Below are positions 41,371-51,707 of a stretch of 64,000 nt of DNA, piece by piece. The position numbers and the translations under genes are program-made. The DNA is from Microthyrium microscopicum. Lineage: Eukaryota. The notes beneath the pieces were generated by a model. It saw only the letters and a list, made by a program, of their open reading frames with translations. It made no database searches and had not been told where the DNA came from. The DNA lies in the NCBI GenBank assembly GCA_010405405.1, contig MU004232.1, positions 2,375,481 through 2,439,480 on the forward strand, written 5' to 3'. How positions within the stretch are numbered: position 1 is the stretch's first letter; each line of letters opens with the position of its first letter.

Positions 41371-41786
41371 ATGGCAAACTCCCATCAATGATCAAGTGCT
41401 ATGGCTCCCACCGCTGCTGCTAACCAAAGGGGTGCTACAATTTTCCATCGTACTCGATCAAGAATTGGGATTTGGGTAGGTCTCTCAGGACATAAAATGC
41501 TCGATGATAGAACCAGCGGCGAGCGCGACGGACCAGTGAAAGGGATGGCATACTCCCATCCAGTGCTGTGGCTCCCACCAATGCTACTGAGCAAAAGATG
41601 CTATATTTCCAATCGTATTCGATAAATGAATTTGATTTTGAACATCCCCTCCAGGACATGAAATCCTCGATCATAACCTAGCGTAACGGAATAGCAAAAC
41701 AAACAGCACACTCCCATCAGGGGTTATGGCTCCCATCAACACCACTAAGCAAAAGATGCCATCATTCCCATCCTATTCGATAAGCC
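41371..41786. repeat. Degenerate tandem repeat, ~3 copies of ~160-175 bp
   Basis: ACTCCCATC..TGGCTCCCA..CAAA(A/G)G..TGC..CCATC/CAATC..TA(C/T)TCGAT recurs at 41378, 41552 and 41710. Confidence 0.8.
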
Positions 41787-42054
41787 TATAAGAAATGGCC
41801 GCCTGATTCGGGAAGTAAAATACTTGAAGGCAGAACGTAGCATGTGGGAGCCAGTGAAGCTGATGGGGCAGCGTCATTTACATAGTTAGTCCGTTGAGCT
41901 ACATGGAATCAACTATATCACGGATGCCGTTTCGGTTCTTGTCAATGGAAACATCTGTATGTCCACATATCGCGGCTAGTACTTGGGTCTCTATCGAGCT
42001 AATCAACACCGTCATATCACTTGGCCTTACACTGACTGATTTAGCTCTGAGAAG

Positions 42055-45000
42055 CTAGGAGGCCAGCAGTGCTCCTTTCTCCTTGACGCGAGCGTCGACA
42101 TAGTCCTGGACGTCTTCCTCTGGTCTCATACGCAAGATCTTGAGTACCGTGTCGTCCCTTGGTTGCACGAAAACTTCCTCGTCTTCCTCTGTTTGGGGAG
42201 TGTTTATATTTCCTAACATTGGTCTAAAGCGCTGCTGCCATGCCTCTTCTTGTCGAACACAAGTTGCGACAGGATTGGCTTTACATAATGCCATCAAGGA
42301 CCTGGAACCCTCGAAGTAGAATGCATGCAGGCTTTTCAAATCGTACTACTGATAGCATTTGAGGATCTTGCGAGTAAAGCTATCTTGCATGCCCATGTTT
42401 TTGCCAATGGTTTGGAAGTATTCGAATAGCAGCTTTCGTAGTTAGCTTGGAGCAGAGTGCCAAAAGAGAATCAAAAAGTACTTACCTGGAGACACTAGAA
42501 AACGACATCTACTTGTTCCTGCTCTAGTGGTTGTTGTTGGGTTGTCCTGCGATAGAGAGTGGGAAGAAGAAGAGATTCAATCATCATTAGTATGTCCTTC
42601 CAAACATCTTTCAGTACTGATAACAATCCAGGCTCAGTTAAAATCGCTTCCAGGGTACCCAAATGCTTGCTGAACTTTTGGAATAGAGGATCGAGAGCGA
42701 TTGCAACCTTTTCCGGGTCTGGTATAGCGGAACCAATTAGGTAGTACCTACGTGCTGGATGCGTCCGATAGAGGTCTACAGTTCTTAATAGTGCAGTGCC
42801 ATGACAGGTATTGCTTTGAACAAAACAAGAACTACAAAATTTAGCTCAACCTTAGCGAAAGATCAAAGATACTATACGTTATTAGCAATGCCATAAATCA
42901 TATTTTTCTTCGTTCTTTCAAGGGACCTGAAGGTGTCACTCGTGTACAATTGAATACCTTCTCGCACTTCTTCTGCGCTGATATTCAGAAGAAGCTGACC
43001 TTGTGGCTTCATGTCGAGCCATAGCTGTCTAGGATCGCGTCTTGTAAAATCTGACGCCTCGATAGTCAAATATGCCACATAGGGCAGATCATCAGCTGGG
43101 CTCCAATTCCAGATAGTAGCCTGAATTTTCTCGGGCCCATTTGTGTTATAATCCATTTCACTGTTCCAATGAGGATCTAGACTGTCAAGGGCGATGCGAG
43201 ATTTGGCCAATATGTTCTGTTGCTCATCCGACAATAAGACATAAGGACACATTGAGCCGCTGCGGAGTTCTAGTAAACCTTCAGCTTTGACGATGTGTAT
43301 GGCAACTTTGTGAAGCGCCTTAGTCTTTGCATTTTCCTGCAGGATCTGTGCCCACGCATCGACCTGCATCTTGGTCTTAAGTGTTACGCAACGAGAGATA
43401 GCGTTTTCGAGGTCGTTAAGCATGGCAAGCGGCGTGTATGCTGCGATCTGGGAAGTGTCTCCTTGCTTCTCTGCCGTTGCATCAAAATCCACCTCAATCA
43501 GCGAATCGCCCATTGCTGCGGTGAACATTTGCCAAAGAACCTGAGCATATTTGGTGACGCACCTGTTAATACCTTTGGACATGATGGTCATAAATTCAGC
43601 GTATTGCAGTTTGTTCTTCCAGCGCAGCTCGACAAGCCGATCGACACATTTGCGCAAAGCGTCGAACATTTCGATGATAGACATGCTTTGGCGTCTGTAA
43701 CTTAACTCGGTTCCCACTATTGTGAAGTCGTCCTTGCTAATACTACTGGCAATGTTGAAGAGTGCCTCGCTCGCTTCTTCCAGCCAGTGTAAAACAAACT
43801 TCTCGAGCAAAGTTTCGGCCGGGAGTTCCAATATCGGACCATCATCTCCAGCTTGAGGCCCAACTTCGTCATACACTCGGCGCATCTCTACTAGTGTTCT
43901 GCAAAGGTCGAATATTACACCATTGTCAATAGCATACTCCTGGGCTTGACTCATCTTTCCAACCTCAGAGATTAGTCTTTTGACATCTCTTGCGTAGGAA
44001 GGGAACACATCCTCGATGAAAATGGCTGAGACGTTCACATCCATGACTACCAAAACTTCTGTGTACAGCGACTGGGTGTTCTCGACAATCGCGAGGATAC
44101 TATCCCCTAGCTGAGCCACCTTGTGAAGCTGCGACTCATCATTGCCCGGCCGGGATATGATATCAGTATACATTAATCGGTATGCATCTATAGCTTTTCG
44201 ACGCAAAATGTATCGCATTTCTGCAGTCCCTCGTCTCCGGTATGTGGCAGTTTCGAGCAAGTCATCATCAGTATAAATATGCTCCCTGAGTGTATATAGT
44301 ATCCTACTGATGGGGAGCGGGCCCGCCGTATAACAGGTCGTCATTCCATGAAATAGTAGCATCATAAGCTTGTCATGCACATCCTCAAGGACTTCTCGGT
44401 AGAGCTCCAGATCAATAATAGGCCACTGTGCGATGACAGAATTATGATAGGTGGATTTGTCGGTTTCTTGAGACCCTAGTTCTGGAAAACAGGACTCTTT
44501 GAAGAATTCGAAAGCTGCTTCTAGGATATCTTGATCTATACCATTGTGTATTTGTCGTATGACGTTGAGAAATAGAATGCAACGCGAAGCATGAGGTATA
44601 TGCCATCGAGTGCCTAATTCTTTGAGCAATTGAGATGAGGCCTTAGATAGGAGTGGGTTGCCTGTAAACTCGGTTCTAGGCTTATGCGATAGCCTGCTCT
44701 GATCATATGGATATGTTTTGATGTCATATGTTTTGATATCATGCCAGAGTGCCTGTTCCATGACAATACGATACTGTTCTCGAGGGTATACGGGGATGAA
44801 GACATAAGGCCTATCATTTTCTTGGCGAGTGTCCTCTCCTTGATCGTCGAACCAGGACTTGCTAGCGTATTCTCGTTTCTTGTCTGGGAGGAGAAGAGAG
44901 ACGACCAGCCGTGCGGGATCTGCAGATTCTCTAATGCTCCAAGCCTTATACGCCTCCTCTGTGCTAAAATCAGAGCGGTGCAAGCATGTCGAGTGTTCTT

Positions 45001-45781
45001 GGTCCAGCCTTCTGTGGTAAGTCTTGGGGTCTTGCAGCGCAGCATCCTGGGTCCAGATAGTCCAATTTCGAACAATATCTTCCTTTAATGTAATGGAAGG
45101 AATATCGAATAAATGCAAGACTGCGAAGAATAGGTTCGTTTTCTCATATTCATGTGTCCATGGTGACCTGGCTACCTGCAACTGACCATTAGCATCAATG
45201 CCATGGGCATCGCTCCTCGCGGCGACAAAGGAGATGAGACCGTTTTCCAGTTTGCGAGAATGCGCAAGCAATGTCAGACGGCTTGTTTCCCACGATGTAT
45301 CCACGAAAGCATGCAAAACTTGTTCGAACAGGCGACTGAAAACAATCAAGTGACGAAGCACTGTCAGAGTCCAAAAATTGGCGTCCGCTAACAGCAGCAC
45401 ATTCTTCGGCTCGCTTTTCATAGCGGAAGCTAAGACGAGCAGTATATCCCGTACTCGTAGTATGCGCAGTGCTGGATTTTGGTGATAGAAAATTTTAAGG
45501 ATATTTGAGAGAGTAGCGAAGTTGGCATATAGCAAAGGAGCAGTGTACTCAAGCACTTCTTTGCGTTCCACAAAGCTTTTGATTTCGTGGCTCAGTGTCA
45601 CTACTGAACCAGGCGGCAGATAGTCTACCTGCACGGGCTCCCAGAGTTGAGCATACTCCTCAAAGGCCTCAGGTAATCTCTGCACAGTTTCGGCCAGCCT
45701 TTGAGGCCATTGCGCGCTGAAAACGTAGGTAGTGTTGAGAAAATCGAGATATGCCACGCGAAGAGCATAGGTAGTTATATG
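42055..45781 (-). pseudogene. Divergent Munc13-homology (MHD1-C2-MHD2) fungal protein, Git1/YOR296W-like, with premature stops
   Basis: YALRVAYLDFL, YVFIPVYPREQYR, a C2 domain (IHIVKAEGL..PYVLLSDE..LAKSR..LDPHW), WKDILMMIESLLLP and DDTVLKILRMRP. In-frame TAG stops at 42497-42495 and 42348-42346. No ATG precedes the YALRVAY motif. Confidence 0.75.
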
Positions 45782-45799
45782 TTAGTTTGTCGGATTCGA

Positions 45800-48227
45800 T
45801 CATTGCAAGCTCTGGAGCCTCCTGGATTTTGTTGAGTCTGCAACTAGCAATGGGTATTCCGTAGCAGCAATAGGAGCTAGATCAGAGTGTCCATGGCGAG
45901 CTTTAAAGAACTTTCCTGTTGCGAAGTCCCAGACCATGTCCAAAGTGGCAGGGACCTTTGCTTGATCTACCTGGTCCTCCGAATAATTCTCAGGGTCATC
46001 CTTTGAGGTTCTATCCTCGTCTTCAAAGTCGTTGGAAGATGTGCTAGAATCTTCTGAGAAGGTCTCTTTGGCGTCCTGAGATCTTGAACCTTGGGCATTG
46101 TCTTGAGGCAAGTTTGAATCGTTATCTAATTTCTCGTCACCGGCCGAATAGTCGGCTCGCGGAATTGCGAACAGGGAGAGTTGTTGAAGATGTCGAGATA
46201 TATGAGTCTTCATGTTCTTGGTTCTCTGGTAGCACAGGTTGCATATGCCACCAGGACATTGTGAAGGCCGCCGAAATATTTGTAAAAGCTCTGGCGAGGA
46301 CTGGAGATCTATGCAATGATCATCCTTCAGATGTATCTCGAAGCTCGTCTGTTCCATATGTACTTGATGACCGGCAGTGTTACAGAAAAACTCAACTCGG
46401 TGGTATTGGAGTTCATGGCTGTACCACTTATCCTGATCTTCGAAAATGTGATCAGGAAGGTTGCAATCGGGGTATGTACAAACATAAGGTTGTATATCAT
46501 TGAGGACGTGCTTTCTGGACGACGATTGAAAGTTAGCAAAGGTGTAAAGTGTGACCTAATTATGGAGACCGGCACATTTGTGGAAATTGGAAAGCAGGAA
46601 CTTACTTCCAGGAGCGATCGGACCGAATATAGGGAGTGAGAGAACAGTAAGCGCATTCGAATCTTGTCAAATGGACTCCGTTTTGGCTACTCGTTGGCCT
46701 TGGAGGTACCTCAATTCCGATTTCTCGAGTCCTTTCGCTACCTGCGAGTGAGGTCCTCGACTGAGTCGACTCTGATTCAGCTATGGATGGAGCGAATAAA
46801 GGTGTAGTGTCTAATAAGGTCGAACCTTCCATTCGTAATTTACTGGCTCTAGTCGGAAAGGTCCACCAACTACTTTCTGGTCTATTGTGAGTCTCGTGAG
46901 CTATTTGAGTGTCTAGTTCGCCGAATACTTTGGAGTCGTTCCCAATGCTCGCTGTATCTTGTAGCTTGAAAGTCGAAGCTACGACATGGGACTTGGATCT
47001 TATGTTAGTTCGGAGGCCAGCTTTATGTTTCTGCCGGTAAATCAGTAGTTGTCGGCGTCTAGTGATCATCTTCCCCAAGCGCAGTTTTACTATTGGGCTA
47101 AGTCGCTCATCGGGAAACTTGTCCAGAACATATGCCACGTCGAAATGCTGAAAATGCGATACTTCCTCTGCTGATTTGTCATTCAGACGGTCGACTGGTG
47201 CTGGTCTACGAAGTGGAAGCTTGTAAAGACAAGTCACGAGGAGTCTGATGGAATCGACGAGTTGTTGTAATTCGGTCCTTCCGCGAGCCTGTACGGGCGG
47301 TTGCTCTGGTGGTCTCATTGTAGCTGTCTTCTCTGATGCAGGTGCCGTATGTTTCTTGTCCGATGACTGCGCAATCGCATCGGCCTCTGTTTCAGAGTCT
47401 GAAGATACTTCCCATGGGGAGTCTTCTTCTTTTTCAGTAGTTTGTGCTTCCAGCCCATGCTCGGAGAGACCTCCATCATTGGAGTCAGAGTCTGACGAAA
47501 GCGCATCAAACGGTATGCGGTCTCCTTTCAAGATTTGGATCGCTTTTGTGGTTTGACGCCTCAAAGTATCCATGAGTTTCAAGACCTGTCATGGTACAGT
47601 TAGTTTGCTGTACAACGAGTTTATCGGCATAATTTTGGATATAGTGATAGAATCGAGCACTCAAAACAAGAATCGATTGCGTCTTCAAGAAGAGGTCAAT
47701 AAGAAGAAGAAACAGCACAGTACCTGATCTCGATAGAAAGAAGCTTCTCTCAGCCTGTAGTCCAAAGACAGTCGATACGTCTTTCCACAATGCGCAGCTC
47801 CGACATTTCCTGCCCAGAGACAATACTTGTCAAACTCCTCCGTTAAATGCTGATGATAATTTCCGGACGTCATTGCAATCTTGCAGAGCTCACCCAAGGA
47901 GGCGTAGCAATCTTCATGTCGTTCAGAGATGGTCATCGCCGCTTCGCTCGGGGTTCCGCTGGCTGCATATAGGTTCGTCGGCTTGTTGGAGTCGCTGGTT
48001 GATCCCAGTGATAAGTCTCCCGGTGTATACTTCCGCTGTTCTGTTCTCACCTCAGTCAGCCATGAGCCTCTCCGCACTGCTCGCTGCGGAGGCAGACTCT
48101 CGCTCGGGTGCAGTGGGATAGACATCTTTGAATTGTTATCATCTTCATCCTCATCAGCAGAGGATAGCAGAGCCTCTGTATCAGGTGAAGCACGCGCCAC
48201 AGCCTGATGGCCCTTTTTGGCCGACAT
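45800..48227 (-). CDS. Fungal 'WAGNVGA..SLDYRLR' N-terminal-domain protein with C2H2-type zinc fingers, 3 exons
   Basis: Exons 48227-47724, 47585-46606 and 46514-45800. Motifs LWAGNVGAAH..SLDYRLREAS, RLGKMITRRRQLLIYR..H, FECAYC..WKKHVLNDIQPYVCTYPDC..WYSHE..H and CNLC..KTHISRHLQQLSLFAIP. Confidence 0.8.
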
Positions 48228-48588
48228 GACAATTGATGATAGCGATATTGGTGACCTTTACCTAGGAGTGCATATCCTACAGCGTGAAGACTTAACCGAA
48301 TCTACCTAAACAGGCACTGCGACTGCGATAAACACACCCATCGGAACGGCAGAAAATATAAAGGCTTCTTCATTGGGGCTGAAGATGCGGGGCTAACCAC
48401 ATATTGTACGTGTATGGCAGGTGCTGACCAGTCTTGTATCACGATTTAGGCGCCGTGCAGATGACTGCATGGCCGGGCGACGACCCGAAACTTCCAAAGT
48501 GAGCTTTCCAGCTTTGCCTTTTAACCCCAATATTCTTTCGATCGGTCATAACTGCCGATATAGGTGGTTTGACTCTGTTGATGCCAGC

Positions 48589-50470
48589 ATGTCTGGATTC
48601 GAAGTCGTAGGGGTCGTTCTCGGGGGTATTCCTCTGATCATCAGCGCTTTAGAACACTACGCCGATGGGGTAAGGCTGGAAATCCTTTCTCAGGAGCTCG
48701 AACTGATATGCTATGCTCTAGGTCACCACAATCAAGCATATGATAGAGTTTGAGAACACATTTCTAGACTCTCAGTCGCGACTCCTGCTCAGTCTAGCTA
48801 TATTTCAACAATCATGCAGAGAGCTCGTTCAAGATCTTCCGGACAGCCAGGTTCGAGATCTGATGGATCTGAGAAACGGATGGGATGATCCAGAGCTGAA
48901 GATAATCCTAGCACGAAAGTTGGGAAAAGACTTTGAGGTGTATAGAATGTCGGTGAAGCTGCTTAACAAAAGAATTGGTCTTCTGCGAAAAAAGTTAAAG
49001 CTACGGGAAGACTTGACAGTATGATACTTACGCGTAAACATAAAGATTGACCCTAACTCTCATAGGCTCCGTTTATAGTCGGTGGTGTTGTGGATGAAAA
49101 ACTTCGCAAAGACTTCTTTAAGAGCTCCTGGTCTCGAATACGCGGTGGGTTCCAGGCTGAAAAGCACAAACAGCTAGTAAATGAAATCCGTGATGACGTT
49201 GATCAGTTGTGCACCTTCACGAAAGGAGCGATGGATATCGAGGATCTAAGCCATGAGAGATCGGCTTCTGCAATATCAAGCTATTGGCTTGGTATGAGGA
49301 GTCATACACATGGCCTATACAACGCGTTGCGCTCTATATGGTCACATAACTGTTCTTCGCATACACACCTTGCAAGGCTTGCACTCGATCTACCGAATGA
49401 TCTTGAAGATGAGCGCGACACACCTCGGTTCAGTCTGTATTTCTCGTTGGCGGAGAAGACGTCCACTCAAACATCTTTGCCAGGCGGATCTCGTAACTTT
49501 ACCGTACTCTCGTTCCAGTCACCAGTTCCATCGTAAGCTCTGCCTTTCTCTTAGTCTTCCATGACCCTGTTCAGGTTTAGTTCGCTGACACCGAATGATA
49601 GAACATCTCCAAATGTTGTGTCCAAATCGCCGAATGCAAAGAAGAAGACCCAGTTCAATCTGCCCACTAGTCCTACCCATGGAAGGCGGAAAACAAAGAT
49701 GGCATGCACCTCCCAGATCAAAATCGAGAATCTATGCACCACAATCGGCAAAATCTGCCAACCAGGATCGTGTTGTGGCTTTCTGAGTGGCCAGGATTGG
49801 CATTATCATATCCATGATGCAGTGGACCAGAAAGTGAAGGGATTGACGCCACTGCCACATATACTCCACTGCCAAGATAGTACAAGGACCACTACAAGAC
49901 AAAAGTGAGTGAAGAATACTTCAAAAAAGTCCAGTGTCTAACGATCAACGGTTGAGTAGAAGAACACTTGCTCTTGCACTCGCGTCTGGAGTCTTGCAAC
50001 TATACAATACGCCATGGCTGCGTGATCGATGGACAGCTGACGATATATACGTGGATACTACTGCACATCAGCTTTACGTTGTCAAGACTTTTGATCCCAC
50101 GGCGGTCGATCAGCAGCATATATCGACGAGCGACGATGAGCTTCTAGTGAAAAATCGAACTCTGTTCGCTCTCGGTGTAGCTCTGCTGGAGCTTACATAT
50201 GGAGCACCTCTGTCGACTCTGCAGACTCCTGAGGATCTCAATGATGCATTCACGCAATATCGAGCTGCTACTCGACTGACGAAGAAGATGCAGGCCGACG
50301 AGCTTCCGAGGTTTGCATCCGCAGTGGGAAAGTGCATATATCCGACGGCCGAGGGGTGTGACTTTAGCTTTGGGAATGAGGCCTTTCGTCGTCGGTTCTT
50401 CGAAGAGGTCGTGCTGCCACTGAAGGAAGATTATGAAGAGCTGTTCCCAAAATCAAGTAGAACTAATTAG
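48589..50470 (+). CDS. Fungal protein with 'MSGFEVVGVVLG' hydrophobic/HeLo-like N-terminus and degenerate kinase-like (DUF7580-type) C-terminal domain, 4 introns
   Basis: MSGFEVVGVVLGGIPLIISALEHYADG, WDDPEL..L..KLG, C..H.H.ARL.L, IENLC, LALALASGVLQLYNTPWL..W...DI, NRTLFALGVALLEL and FRRRFFEEVVLPL. Domain names come from recall of the family, not from a search. Confidence 0.8.
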
Positions 50471-50914
50471 GCCACCGTGCCTCAAAGGCCTCAAACTCTC
50501 TCTTGAATATCTTACTTTGAGAATTCCACATCCGTCGAAGTGTCTTGCTTCGTTGTCCAGCATCGCAGTATAGTACCAGTAGCTGCCTTTTGAGGTGAGT
50601 ATCGAGCTCGTCCCTGCATTGAGATGCTGTAGTCAACGCGTGAGAGTGTGAAGCTGTAAACATCAGTGAATAAATTTCAACAAGATGAAAGTTTGAAGAC
50701 TAATGGACGCGTCAACTGATAGATGCAAATGGAGGAGGCTCTCCAAAAGCCGCTAACCTAAAACTGACTAGCTCCATCGAGTCTCCAAACCTCCAGCTTT
50801 AAACATTCAAGATAGGCCTTGATACCAAGCACTTCATTCCACCAACCAACTCCTCTATCGCTCACACATATATACCCACAACTAAACCCACAAGAACTCC
50901 CATCTGCTCTCACA

Positions 50915-51353
50915 ATGTCAATCGCCCAACAATACGGTTTCACAACCCCCCACCAAGCCCGCTCCCTCCGCGCCTGCATGGTCTGCTCCATAATCCAAGT
51001 CTCCTCCGTTCGCTCCTCCCTATCCTCCCCTCACCACCACATAAACCACTAACACGTCCTAGAAATTCGTATCCGAAGGCTGTCCCAACTGCGAAGGCGT
51101 CCTCGGCATGAAAGACAGCCAAGAAGCCGTCCAAGAATGCACCTCCGCCAACTGGAACGGCATGATCGCCGTAGCCGACCCCTCCAAGTCCTGGGTCGCC
51201 CGATGGCAGCGCGTAGAAACATATGTACCCGGCATGTACGCAGTCCAAGTGATTGGGAAATTACCGCAGGATGTGCTGGAGCGCATGGAGGATAATGGGA
51301 TGCGGTATGTGCCAAGAGATGGGGTGGAGGATGTTGGTGTTGAGGAGGAGTAG
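50915..51353 (+). CDS. SPT4: Transcription elongation factor Spt4, 1 intron
   Basis: LRACMVCS..GCPNC..ECTSANWNG..SWVARWQR..VPGMYAVQVIGKLP..YVPRDG. Confidence 0.95.
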
Positions 51354-51707
51354 AAACCAGCTCCAGATGAGGAAAGACGAGGGAAGGTGGTTTGAAGAAT
51401 GGCATTTGAAGGCGTTATGTTGGGATTTTTGTTATGACACGAAGAAAAAAGGCATATACCCCAGCGGGATTTCGACTTACGAGCGAGCAGGTTATTTTTG
51501 AGTAATGTTGACAATTGAAATTTTTGCTCCATACAATACAGAACCTGAGCAGGTGCTTCTAATACATGTAGAGATATACTCGGACAAACTCCCGCATACT
51601 ATGAACAGCCGAATTCTGCTTTTCTCTATCACCAGCCATGCCAATTCCAGCTTTTCTCTATCACCACGCATAATATTCCATGGACCTTTCGATGCTGTCC
51701 TGATATT

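Follow-up and report, generated by a model that had tools for sequence, protein, structure and literature searches.

A head-to-head zinc-finger and pseudokinase gene pair in Microthyrium microscopicum: a putative sensor/executioner switch of filamentous ascomycetes

Overall organization of the locus

The locus described here occupies positions 42,055 to 50,470 of a 64,000-nucleotide stretch of the genome of Microthyrium microscopicum (GenBank assembly GCA_010405405.1, contig MU004232.1, positions 2,375,481 to 2,439,480 of the forward strand), which is referred to as the window. Two genes diverge there from a short common region. The plus-strand gene (48589..50470) encodes a protein of 552 amino acids (aa) with a domain of the family DUF7580, and the minus-strand gene (45800..48227) encodes an AcuF-type C2H2 zinc-finger protein of 732 aa. 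The region between both start codons measures 361 bp (48228..48588), in agreement with the divergent intergenic region of about 360 bp reported in the initial annotation of this DNA. That annotation had described a locus of two genes, the zinc-finger frame running on into a Munc13-like protein. The two open reading frames (ORFs) do lie in the same frame; two in-frame stop codons separate them, however, and the locus consists of three coding units, the third being a Munc13-like ORF of 969 open codons with MUN and C2 domains (42872..45781, minus strand). The products of the window match public proteins of M. microscopicum at 99–100% identity, namely P0001 (1812 aa) and P0003 (552 aa).

Splice sites were read from the public sequencing run X1, in which 91% of the sampled words of the region are present and whose type is only guessed as RNA. 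Aligned to 41500–51500, a single X1 contig of 8678 bases spans the whole locus minus eight pieces, four with CT..AC ends and four with GT..AG ends. X1 was treated as RNA-like because the contig is without these eight introns having GT..AG ends; it informs splice sites, with levels, transcript ends and rare forms outside its reach. The DUF7580 gene has five exons (48589–48669, 48722–49018, 49066–49532, 49602–49904 and 49960–50470, stop included), its four introns being the GT..AG joints of the contig, and the boundary of the first intron could be placed one base further left. The spliced ORF is intact and identical to P0003, likewise of 552 aa, with 100% identity in the last exon. The zinc-finger gene has three exons (48227–47724, 47585–46606 and 46514–45800, minus strand) with two CT..AC joints in the contig, and ends at the TGA 45802–45800. 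The region between both start codons is also covered by the contig.

The DUF7580 protein: a helical bundle and a pseudokinase

The plus-strand gene begins with MSGFEVVGVVLGGIPLIISALEHY at 48589. The only Pfam family found in its product is DUF7580 (residues 203–542, expectation value (E) 4.9e-25). The family is large: it counts 2436 representatives at E <= 0.001, of which 761 reach E <= 1e-10, and many align over the full length. DUF7580 is the sole Pfam family in each of 53 members that are complete or almost so. Relatives of the protein come from Diplodia, Aplosporella, Periconia, Geopyxis, Trichoderma, Phyllosticta, Cladorrhinum, Arthrobotrys, Chaenotheca and Cladosporium, as well as from Talaromyces, Aspergillus and Bathelium, and span many classes of Pezizomycotina.

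An AlphaFold model of the whole protein, built with 53 sequences, has a predicted local distance difference test (pLDDT) score of 87.3 and a predicted template modelling score (pTM) of 0.80. It contains helices at residues 3–35, 37–62 and 84–118 and a very long one at 147–218, followed by a strand-rich lobe and a helical lobe. The N-terminal helical domain (residues 1–218, 48589..49341, plus strand) is predicted to comprise a conserved helix, three further long helices and the connecting helix 147–218; modelled alone, residues 1–220 reach a pLDDT of 93.3. The hydrophobic N-terminal helix noticed in the initial annotation is present and conserved. It is glycine-rich and follows the pattern MSGxExxGxxLGxxPLxIxALExY, and conservation within the protein is highest over residues 1–27 (MSGxExxGxxLGxxPLxIxALExYxxG), which are near-identical in all related loci, with G3 in 47 of 47 sequences, G8 in 49 of 50 and P15 in 50 of 50.

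Some longer members of the family look different at this end. P0004 and P0005, from Talaromyces and Aspergillus, have a first helix without the conserved G3, E5 and G8, and these two proteins together with P0023 carry about 280–370 extra N-terminal residues with weak alpha/beta-hydrolase (lipase-like) matches below the Pfam cut-offs. When 22 longer or partly matching DUF7580 members were scanned for extra N-terminal domains, the weak alpha/beta-hydrolase match of P0023 was all that appeared.

The remainder of the protein (residues ~219–552, 49342..50467, plus strand) resembles protein kinases. When the model was compared with 48,161 chains by VIA-align, the best 50 rows were all kinases or pseudokinases (Z 8.0–9.9, model range ~205–548), among them Btk, CRAF, TNNI3K, BIK1, BIR2, RIPK1/2/3 and IRAK. 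A second look gave Z 9.8–10.7, mostly for B-Raf, with 571 of 1000 chains at Z >= 8. The best Foldseek rows for the whole model were also kinases, at E 2e-3 and upward, and 59 of the 60 rows listed for the family profile against the PDB sequences were named kinases (E 0.023–0.65). The columns aligned with the HRD motif (404–406) are variable, the Asp column holding T in 9, R in 7, A in 6, Q in 5 and D in only 4 of 53 sequences, and in the DUF7580 alignment no conserved Lys or Asp was found at the expected catalytic sites (beta3 Lys, HRD Asp and DFG Asp). We therefore regard the domain as a pseudokinase, in the model a TKL-type (tyrosine kinase-like) kinase fold whose catalytic residues are lost, in line with the degenerate kinase-like C-terminus proposed earlier. 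The predicted layout of the whole protein, a bundle, a connecting helix and a pseudokinase, is MLKL-like.

The conserved polar residues of the domain are C222, H227, C327, C339, D411, N448, E460 and C508. Several of them form a Cys/His set (~49351–50340), with C222 in 47 of 53 sequences, H227 in 53 of 53, C327 in 52 of 52, C339 in 32 of 52 and C508 in 52 of 53; the family also has a Cys at position 511. Judged by this pattern, the set may form a metal site.

The initial annotation had further proposed a HeLo-like fold for the N-terminal part, and here the searches diverge. A search with language-model features in the Atlas (residues 1–220; named clusters only, PF24476 clusters excluded) placed HeLo clusters first, with scores of 0.94 (178 of 256 features common) and 0.91, and 9 of its 10 best matches belong to the HeLo family or clan. 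The other methods gave no such match. When 57 members of the family were run against Pfam at E <= 10, 43 families were matched, and the 25 of them listed include none of HeLo type; hhalign of the bundle profile against the HeLo domain of a related locus (L020) gave a probability of 1.5%. VIA-align of the bundle returned generic helical bundles, the best being a designed 3-helix bundle at Z 8.4, with no HeLo or MLKL among the best 50; Foldseek gave a best E of 0.25; and the Atlas structure search found unrelated helical proteins with template modelling (TM) scores of at most 0.40 by query. These failed fold searches are no proof that the folds differ. For the whole model, MLKL was absent from the best 50 VIA-align rows listed, and the Foldseek alignment with AtMLKL3 (6ka4_A) covers 615 columns but is weak (rank 50, E 1.1e-2, TM 0.22). 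Among all these searches the feature search is the one that suggests a HeLo homology.

The AcuF-type zinc-finger module

The minus-strand protein consists of a helical part with the WAGNVGA and SLDYRLR motifs, a part with the motif RRPAPxDR, and AcuF-type C2H2 fingers, together forming a module of about 600 aa; both the helical region and the fingers noted in the initial annotation are there. The assignment to PF26082 (zf-C2H2_AcuF) is precomputed on P0001, and in the Atlas the three best clusters for the zinc-finger region have 36–64% members with PF26082 (score 0.90), 23 of 30 matches falling within the family set. Representatives of the zf-C2H2_AcuF clusters in the Atlas are 447–667 aa long. 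The CxxC...H motifs are conserved in the alignment of the module, which is conserved as far as the motif VPxxxxWDxxT, in the window VPATLDMVWDFATG. The local copy of Pfam had no match on the zinc-finger exons or on residues 1–730 of P0001. Neither NACHT nor NB-ARC was matched by Pfam in the exons of the window or in P0001; the relatives L001, L003, L004, L005 and L022 do have such domains.

The zinc-finger ORF of the window carries about 96 extra N-terminal residues (47940–48227, minus strand) that are absent from all relatives, which start at the position of Met97 (MTISERH...). Judging from this alignment, the true start may lie at 47939, in which case the gap between the genes would be about 650 bp.

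Conserved head-to-head pairing in related loci

Related loci were collected by scanning metagenome contigs with an alignment of seven close DUF7580 sequences, which gave 46 loci; with P0003 alone the scan gave 56 pattern matches and no relative. The zinc-finger part of P0001 served as query on these 46 loci, as did profiles derived from the resulting matches. Fourteen of them hold a full-length DUF7580 match with at least 2.3 kb of sequence upstream (L001, L002, L003, L004, L005, L009, L012, L013, L016, L017, L018, L020, L023 and L026), and in all 14 a zinc-finger homologue lies directly upstream on the opposite strand, with 31–40% identity over residues ~95–690. After merging of contigs that are 98.6–100% identical, the head-to-head pair is present in 10 of 10 distinct loci, which bears out the recurrent linkage of both families expected in the initial annotation. 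L011, where DUF7580 is truncated, is an eleventh paired locus. Loci with DUF7580 at a contig end or with less than 0.8 kb upstream were excluded from the count (L006–L008, L010, L014, L015, L019, L021, L025, L027, L029, L030, L032, L038 and L042–L046).

The distance from ATG to ATG is 197–405 bp in 8 of 9 measured loci and 1152 bp in L005. Of the 48 ORFs in 437 kb of loci that match the zinc-finger profile, 47 are no more than 3 kb away from a DUF7580 match, and the remaining one, at 3031 bp, is part of the same gene. Outside the pair the flanks have almost nothing in common among loci. The pairwise identities of the two proteins correlate (r = 0.88 over 12 pairs), a value reached by none of 5000 permutations. 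The zinc-finger and DUF7580 genes are a conserved, co-inherited head-to-head pair of filamentous ascomycetes. Among more distant DUF7580 loci, L028, L039/L040 and L041 have a divergent zinc-finger relative at 1.4–1.9 kb, and in L022, L024, L030 and L033 the zinc-finger relative lies downstream of DUF7580 on the same strand.

In L022 (2760–5534, plus strand) a zinc-finger region (profile 401–542) abuts a DUF7580 part (174–566) that has no N-terminal bundle, with 20 bases between the ORFs. From this arrangement the two parts may be one fused gene; such a fusion, if real, would be independent support for an interaction between both families. At 1.1 kb downstream, L022 has another zinc-finger gene, one that carries NB-ARC and TPR. 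In L011 (2720–3544, plus strand) DUF7580 is reduced to its C-terminal lobe (profile 327–569) beside a zinc-finger–kinase fusion, and this remnant begins about 100 bases from the zinc-finger start.

Predicted docking of the two products

Complex prediction for residues 100–690 of the zinc-finger protein with residues 147–552 of P0003 gave interaction scores from predicted aligned errors (ipSAE) of 0.72, 0.72 and 0.69, the best of 3 controls scoring 0.00. The mark used for this score is reached by 51 of 78 solved complexes and by 2 of 108 mismatched pairs, and in a eukaryotic benchmark by 39 of 65 solved pairs without a like older complex and by 2 of 126 unrelated pairs. Of 44 neighbouring genes picked blind, 7 reach it as well. 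Between runs, at least 49% of the contacts recur, and the partner pLDDT is at least 68. On the zinc-finger side, the confident contacts fall on residues 130–142 (EFDKYCLWAGNV), on 289–294 (in CLYKLPLRRPAP) and on parts of fingers 2–3, which are the most conserved motifs of the module, including EFDKYxIWAGNV. All 9 sequences compared keep W138, A139 and V142 of the interface, and all 12 keep C539, N540 and F575. On the pseudokinase side, the contacts lie on the C-lobe (residues 379–384, 445–447, 476–487, 498–518 and 539–544). The prediction supports, without proving, a direct pairing of both products.

Variable tails behind the zinc-finger module

The initial annotation had asked whether the zinc-finger partner carries variable C-terminal domains elsewhere, and it does, NOD-like receptor (NLR) modules, HET and HeLo among them. 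Tail domains were assigned by Pfam. In L004 a single ORF of 1529 aa holds the module, HET (E 8e-12) and NACHT (E 1e-13), followed by a WD40 ORF. The finger ORF of L005 contains NACHT (NPHP3_N, E 3e-38) and is followed by ankyrin repeats, and in L001 NACHT_N begins in the finger ORF and continues with NACHT in the next one. L003 has NB-ARC, DUF7779 and TPR, and L022 has NB-ARC and TPR. A protein kinase shares the 878-aa ORF of the module in L011, a kinase ORF and then a HET ORF follow it in L013, and a weak alpha/beta-hydrolase match lies in the same ORF in L016. L020 and L023 show a HeLo ORF (E 9e-12 and 1e-12), then TPR. No Pfam domain was recognisable behind the module in L009, L012 and L026.

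Such different tails are carried by modules that are 57–69% identical, and many of the tail domains are standard parts of fungal NLR and incompatibility proteins. Two tails of the more distant loci are of another kind: L041 (3–824, minus strand) has an EVH1 domain of the PP4R3 type (EVH1_PP4R3; protein phosphatase 4 regulatory subunit 3), and L040 (2756–6871, minus strand) has Myb, then PHD, KilA-N, UBA and C2H2. The Munc13-like domain of the window occupies the same position as these variable tails, and the pieces of cellular regulators in L041 and L040 could be baits like it.

A candidate sensor/executioner switch

The best explanation of the locus is a sensor/executioner switch. Its architecture is well supported, and we give the explanation as a whole a little better than an even chance. 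The zinc-finger module would dock, as predicted, on the C-lobe of the neighbour's pseudokinase, and the variable tail would sense a ligand or a disturbance. Clustering would then free the N-terminal bundle of the partner to act on membranes, with the pseudokinase serving as receiver as in RIPK3/MLKL, so that the whole would parallel NLR/HET-S. The window copy would once have borne a Munc13-like bait, now detached, for which a decoy role is conceivable. A more far-reaching version, which we advance tentatively and rate somewhat below an even chance, sees the zinc-finger part as an adaptor attached to many sensors and baits (Munc13, PP4R3) that recruits the paired MLKL-like executioner by C-lobe docking, and not by amyloid templating or phosphorylation; this would be an undescribed class of fungal switch. 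A circumstantial point in favour of a sensor/executioner switch is that zf-C2H2_AcuF is, like HET and ankyrin, one of the families that differ most in copy number between strains of Neurospora crassa (PMC13412767).

Several points weigh against this interpretation. Cell death and membrane action are read from the layout of the DUF7580 protein, and neither Pfam nor hhalign nor the fold searches matched its bundle significantly to HeLo-type families. The complex score expresses the confidence of a model and was obtained without alignments and with disordered stretches (pLDDT of the zinc-finger chain 58–59). The correlation of identities could largely reflect species relatedness. In L031, L034–L036 and L037, representing three distant DUF7580 lineages, there is no zinc-finger neighbour in 3.3–3.9 kb upstream. 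The related loci are metagenome contigs whose gene structures were inferred from ORFs and profile matches, and several of the fusions (L001, L003 and L020) require a short intron between ORFs. Finally, an open frame of 969 codons ill fits an old pseudogene, and the Munc13-like part may still be made.

Among the alternatives, it is conceivable but unlikely that the zinc-finger gene encodes a normal transcription factor that binds DNA. It and its neighbour would then be driven by one bidirectional promoter, one of the two regulating the other, and neither would have a role in death or non-self recognition. C2H2 fingers are classical DNA binders, head-to-head gaps of 200–400 bp suit a common promoter, and L040 has Myb, PHD, KilA-N and further C2H2 behind the module. 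It is hard to reconcile with a transcription factor, however, that the module shares one ORF with NACHT, HET, NACHT_N, kinase or hydrolase in 5 loci and is followed by HeLo or NB-ARC–TPR in others, which is not the layout of such a protein; that the predicted interface falls on the most conserved motifs of the module; and that the partner has an MLKL-like layout.

The Munc13-like reading frame

The Munc13-like ORF matches the MUN domain with 28.7 bits (cut-off 24.2, E 9.2e-7) and the C2 domain with 30.6 bits (cut-off 22, E 4.2e-7), and is 25% identical to the fungal Munc13-type protein P0002 over 824 columns (E 1e-60). The homology starts at codon 4, where TYALRVAYL aligns with residue 24 of P0002. 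The first in-frame ATG, by contrast, is codon 121 (45421), and the junction with the zinc-finger ORF (45782..45802, minus strand) consists of TGA (45802–45800), five codons and TAA (45784–45782), in the frame common to both ORFs. Since the X1 contig is unbroken from 42878 to 46514, the junction is unspliced there. At the other end, the contig introns 42832–42877 (46 nt) and 42433–42485 shift the Munc13-like frame, and the ORF ends at 42751. These introns lie in the 3' remainder of the region (42055..42871, minus strand), whose further ORFs 42845–42495 and 42345–42055 are read only in the public 1812-aa model. With no ATG before codon 121, two stops upstream and the frame lost after the 46-nt intron, the Munc13-like gene is incomplete, and by its sequence it looks cut off at both ends. 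Because the long centre stays open, the detachment may be recent, or the part may still be read somehow.

The public 1812-aa model joins the zinc-finger and Munc13-like ORFs by an intron 45911–45717 with the donor GTTCTT, and reaches the two downstream ORFs by two further introns with the donors GTATTC and GTAGAT. None of these three non-consensus introns is used in the X1 contig. The +3 position of the donor is A or G in all eight contig introns, and T in GTTCTT. The two in-frame stops, the lack of a splice at the junction and the 3' frame mismatch make the fused model doubtful.

The fusion might nevertheless be real, arising by minor splicing, readthrough or reinitiation and providing an integrated bait for attackers of vesicle priming. 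We consider this improbable, to about the same degree as the transcription factor. On its side, both ORFs are in one frame, the Munc13 homology resumes 4 codons past the second stop, 120 codons without an ATG have nevertheless stayed open, and the central 969 codons are intact. Relatives place variable domains, EVH1_PP4R3 included, exactly after VPxxxxWDxxT; an exocytosis component monitored by a fungal NLR has a precedent in PLP-1/SEC-9 (PMC12881547); and contigs drop rare variants, so that a minor spliced form would be compatible with X1. Besides the stops, however, the contig, which is without all eight other introns, keeps the junction unspliced. The unusual T at +3 would have to be accompanied by two more non-consensus donors, the intron 45911–45717 would remove the conserved YALRVAYL, and the part past the C2 domain is out of frame with the contig splice sites. 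In a search for longer fused proteins, the window's own model was the only match (1 of 4726 candidates). The ZnF–Munc13 fusion put forward in the initial annotation was not seen in the RNA-like contig.

Still less probable is a separate Munc13-like gene, started for instance at Met121, that happens to follow the zinc-finger gene and is unconnected with the pair. The stops do separate the ORFs, the contig shows minus-strand transcription and splicing of the region, and Munc13 matches none of the 46 related loci, being confined to the window. Such a gene would, however, have no intergenic space in front of it, its ORF opening right after the second stop, and its 120 conserved N-terminal codons would go unused. 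Its identity to a typical fungal Munc13 is a mere 25%, P0002 alone emerged when 8000 candidates from a larger pool were scored in a near-length search for relatives, and its 3' end is broken with the contig splice sites. The related idea of a neighbouring gene wrongly merged by the gene model was set aside, the variable tails of the relatives having made an ancestral fusion likelier.

The Munc13-like part is outside the conserved module. The window copy most likely makes the 732-aa zinc-finger protein and its 552-aa partner, and the public 1812-aa fusion is most likely an artefact of gene modelling or, at best, a minor form. For annotation it matters that this model depends on three non-consensus introns unused in an RNA-like contig.

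As for the pair itself, a chance adjacency of two families without joint function, both of them large in ascomycetes (2436 DUF7580 representatives at E <= 0.001), is hardly credible given head-to-head pairs in 10 of 10 distinct evaluable loci, proteins that diverge in step and non-syntenic flanks.

Comparison with known systems

The reviewed fungal two-gene clusters couple either by amyloid motifs, between an NLR and HeLo or HELL, or by proteolysis, between a protease and a gasdermin (PMC12881547). In nwd2/het-S of Podospora and in PNT1/HELLP, a gene with NACHT or NB-ARC and repeats lies next to one for a small protein with an N-terminal helical killer domain, the effector has a C-terminal receiver part and the sensor domains are shuffled among pairs (PMC12881547). 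The present pair resembles them in this arrangement, its bundle being a putative killer domain and its pseudokinase a putative receiver. The coupling elements differ. In the known clusters a short amyloid motif is common to the N-terminus of the NLR and the C-terminus of the effector (PMC12881547), whereas the present pair has a 330-aa pseudokinase and, on the sensor side, a 600-aa zinc-finger module predicted to bind it. On reading, no obvious repeat common to both proteins was seen, no search aimed at amyloid motifs having been made. Unlike the HeLo and HELL effectors, the bundle here is not recognisable as either domain.

MLKL of animals and plants has the same order of helical bundle, connecting helix and TKL-type pseudokinase, and is regulated through the pseudokinase by a partner protein. 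The bundle of the DUF7580 protein, in contrast, has no significant sequence or fold match to the four-helix bundle, and membership in the MLKL family is not claimed. An NLR pair with a helper MLKL has been described in wheat (preprint 10.64898/2026.08.07.743466). The partner here is a zinc-finger module and not a RIP kinase, and the pair is encoded head-to-head.

Plants also have head-to-head NLR pairs with integrated decoy domains. As in those pairs, the genes here are divergent and unusual domains of cellular proteins are integrated in the sensor; unlike there, the helper gene does not encode an NLR. The integrated-decoy hypothesis is cited in PMC12258605. In Neurospora, PLP-1/SEC-9 provides a case of an exocytosis protein watched by a fungal NLR (PMC12881547), and the window likewise joins an exocytosis-type Munc13-like domain to a sensor-type module. 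SEC-9, however, is the product of a genuine essential gene beside plp-1, whereas the Munc13 copy of the window is very divergent and apparently truncated, and its use as a bait is presumed. The Ync13/Munc13 family acts in vesicle priming and, in fission yeast, in cytokinesis (PMC6249806). The ORF of the window resembles it in its MUN and C2 domains, both above the Pfam cut-offs, and in the YALRVAYL stretch in common with P0002, and departs from it in the low identity, the lack of a start before codon 121 and the 3' part out of frame in the contig.

In open-access papers and bioRxiv, we found no paper that names DUF7580, and PF26082 is named in the N. crassa pangenome paper only (PMC13412767). 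A study of NLRs in Sordariales reports zinc fingers on 57 NLRs and has no occurrence of the word pseudokinase (PMC12258605); the word zinc is absent from a study of NLR N-termini. The pair is probably a previously undescribed form of fungal two-gene sensor/executioner cluster. If so, it would add a third coupling principle to amyloid motifs and proteolysis, would assign a function to DUF7580 and the AcuF-type zinc fingers, two large families whose role is unknown, and would extend the full MLKL layout of bundle and pseudokinase to the fungi. Since the interface is predicted to be a short and conserved motif, the idea lends itself to direct testing.

Flanking genes and continuity of the contig

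The locus is flanked by genes for a PP5/PPT1-type phosphatase (TPR, PPP5 and Metallophos domains) on one side and, on the other, for Spt4 and then an AMP-binding enzyme, which confirms its placement between PPT1 and SPT4. The X1 contig is continuous through 48228–48588 and also through about 640 bases past the last Munc13-like ORF (41410–42055), toward the phosphatase gene. The continuity could stem from divergent 5' ends that overlap, from long untranslated regions or from some DNA in the run.

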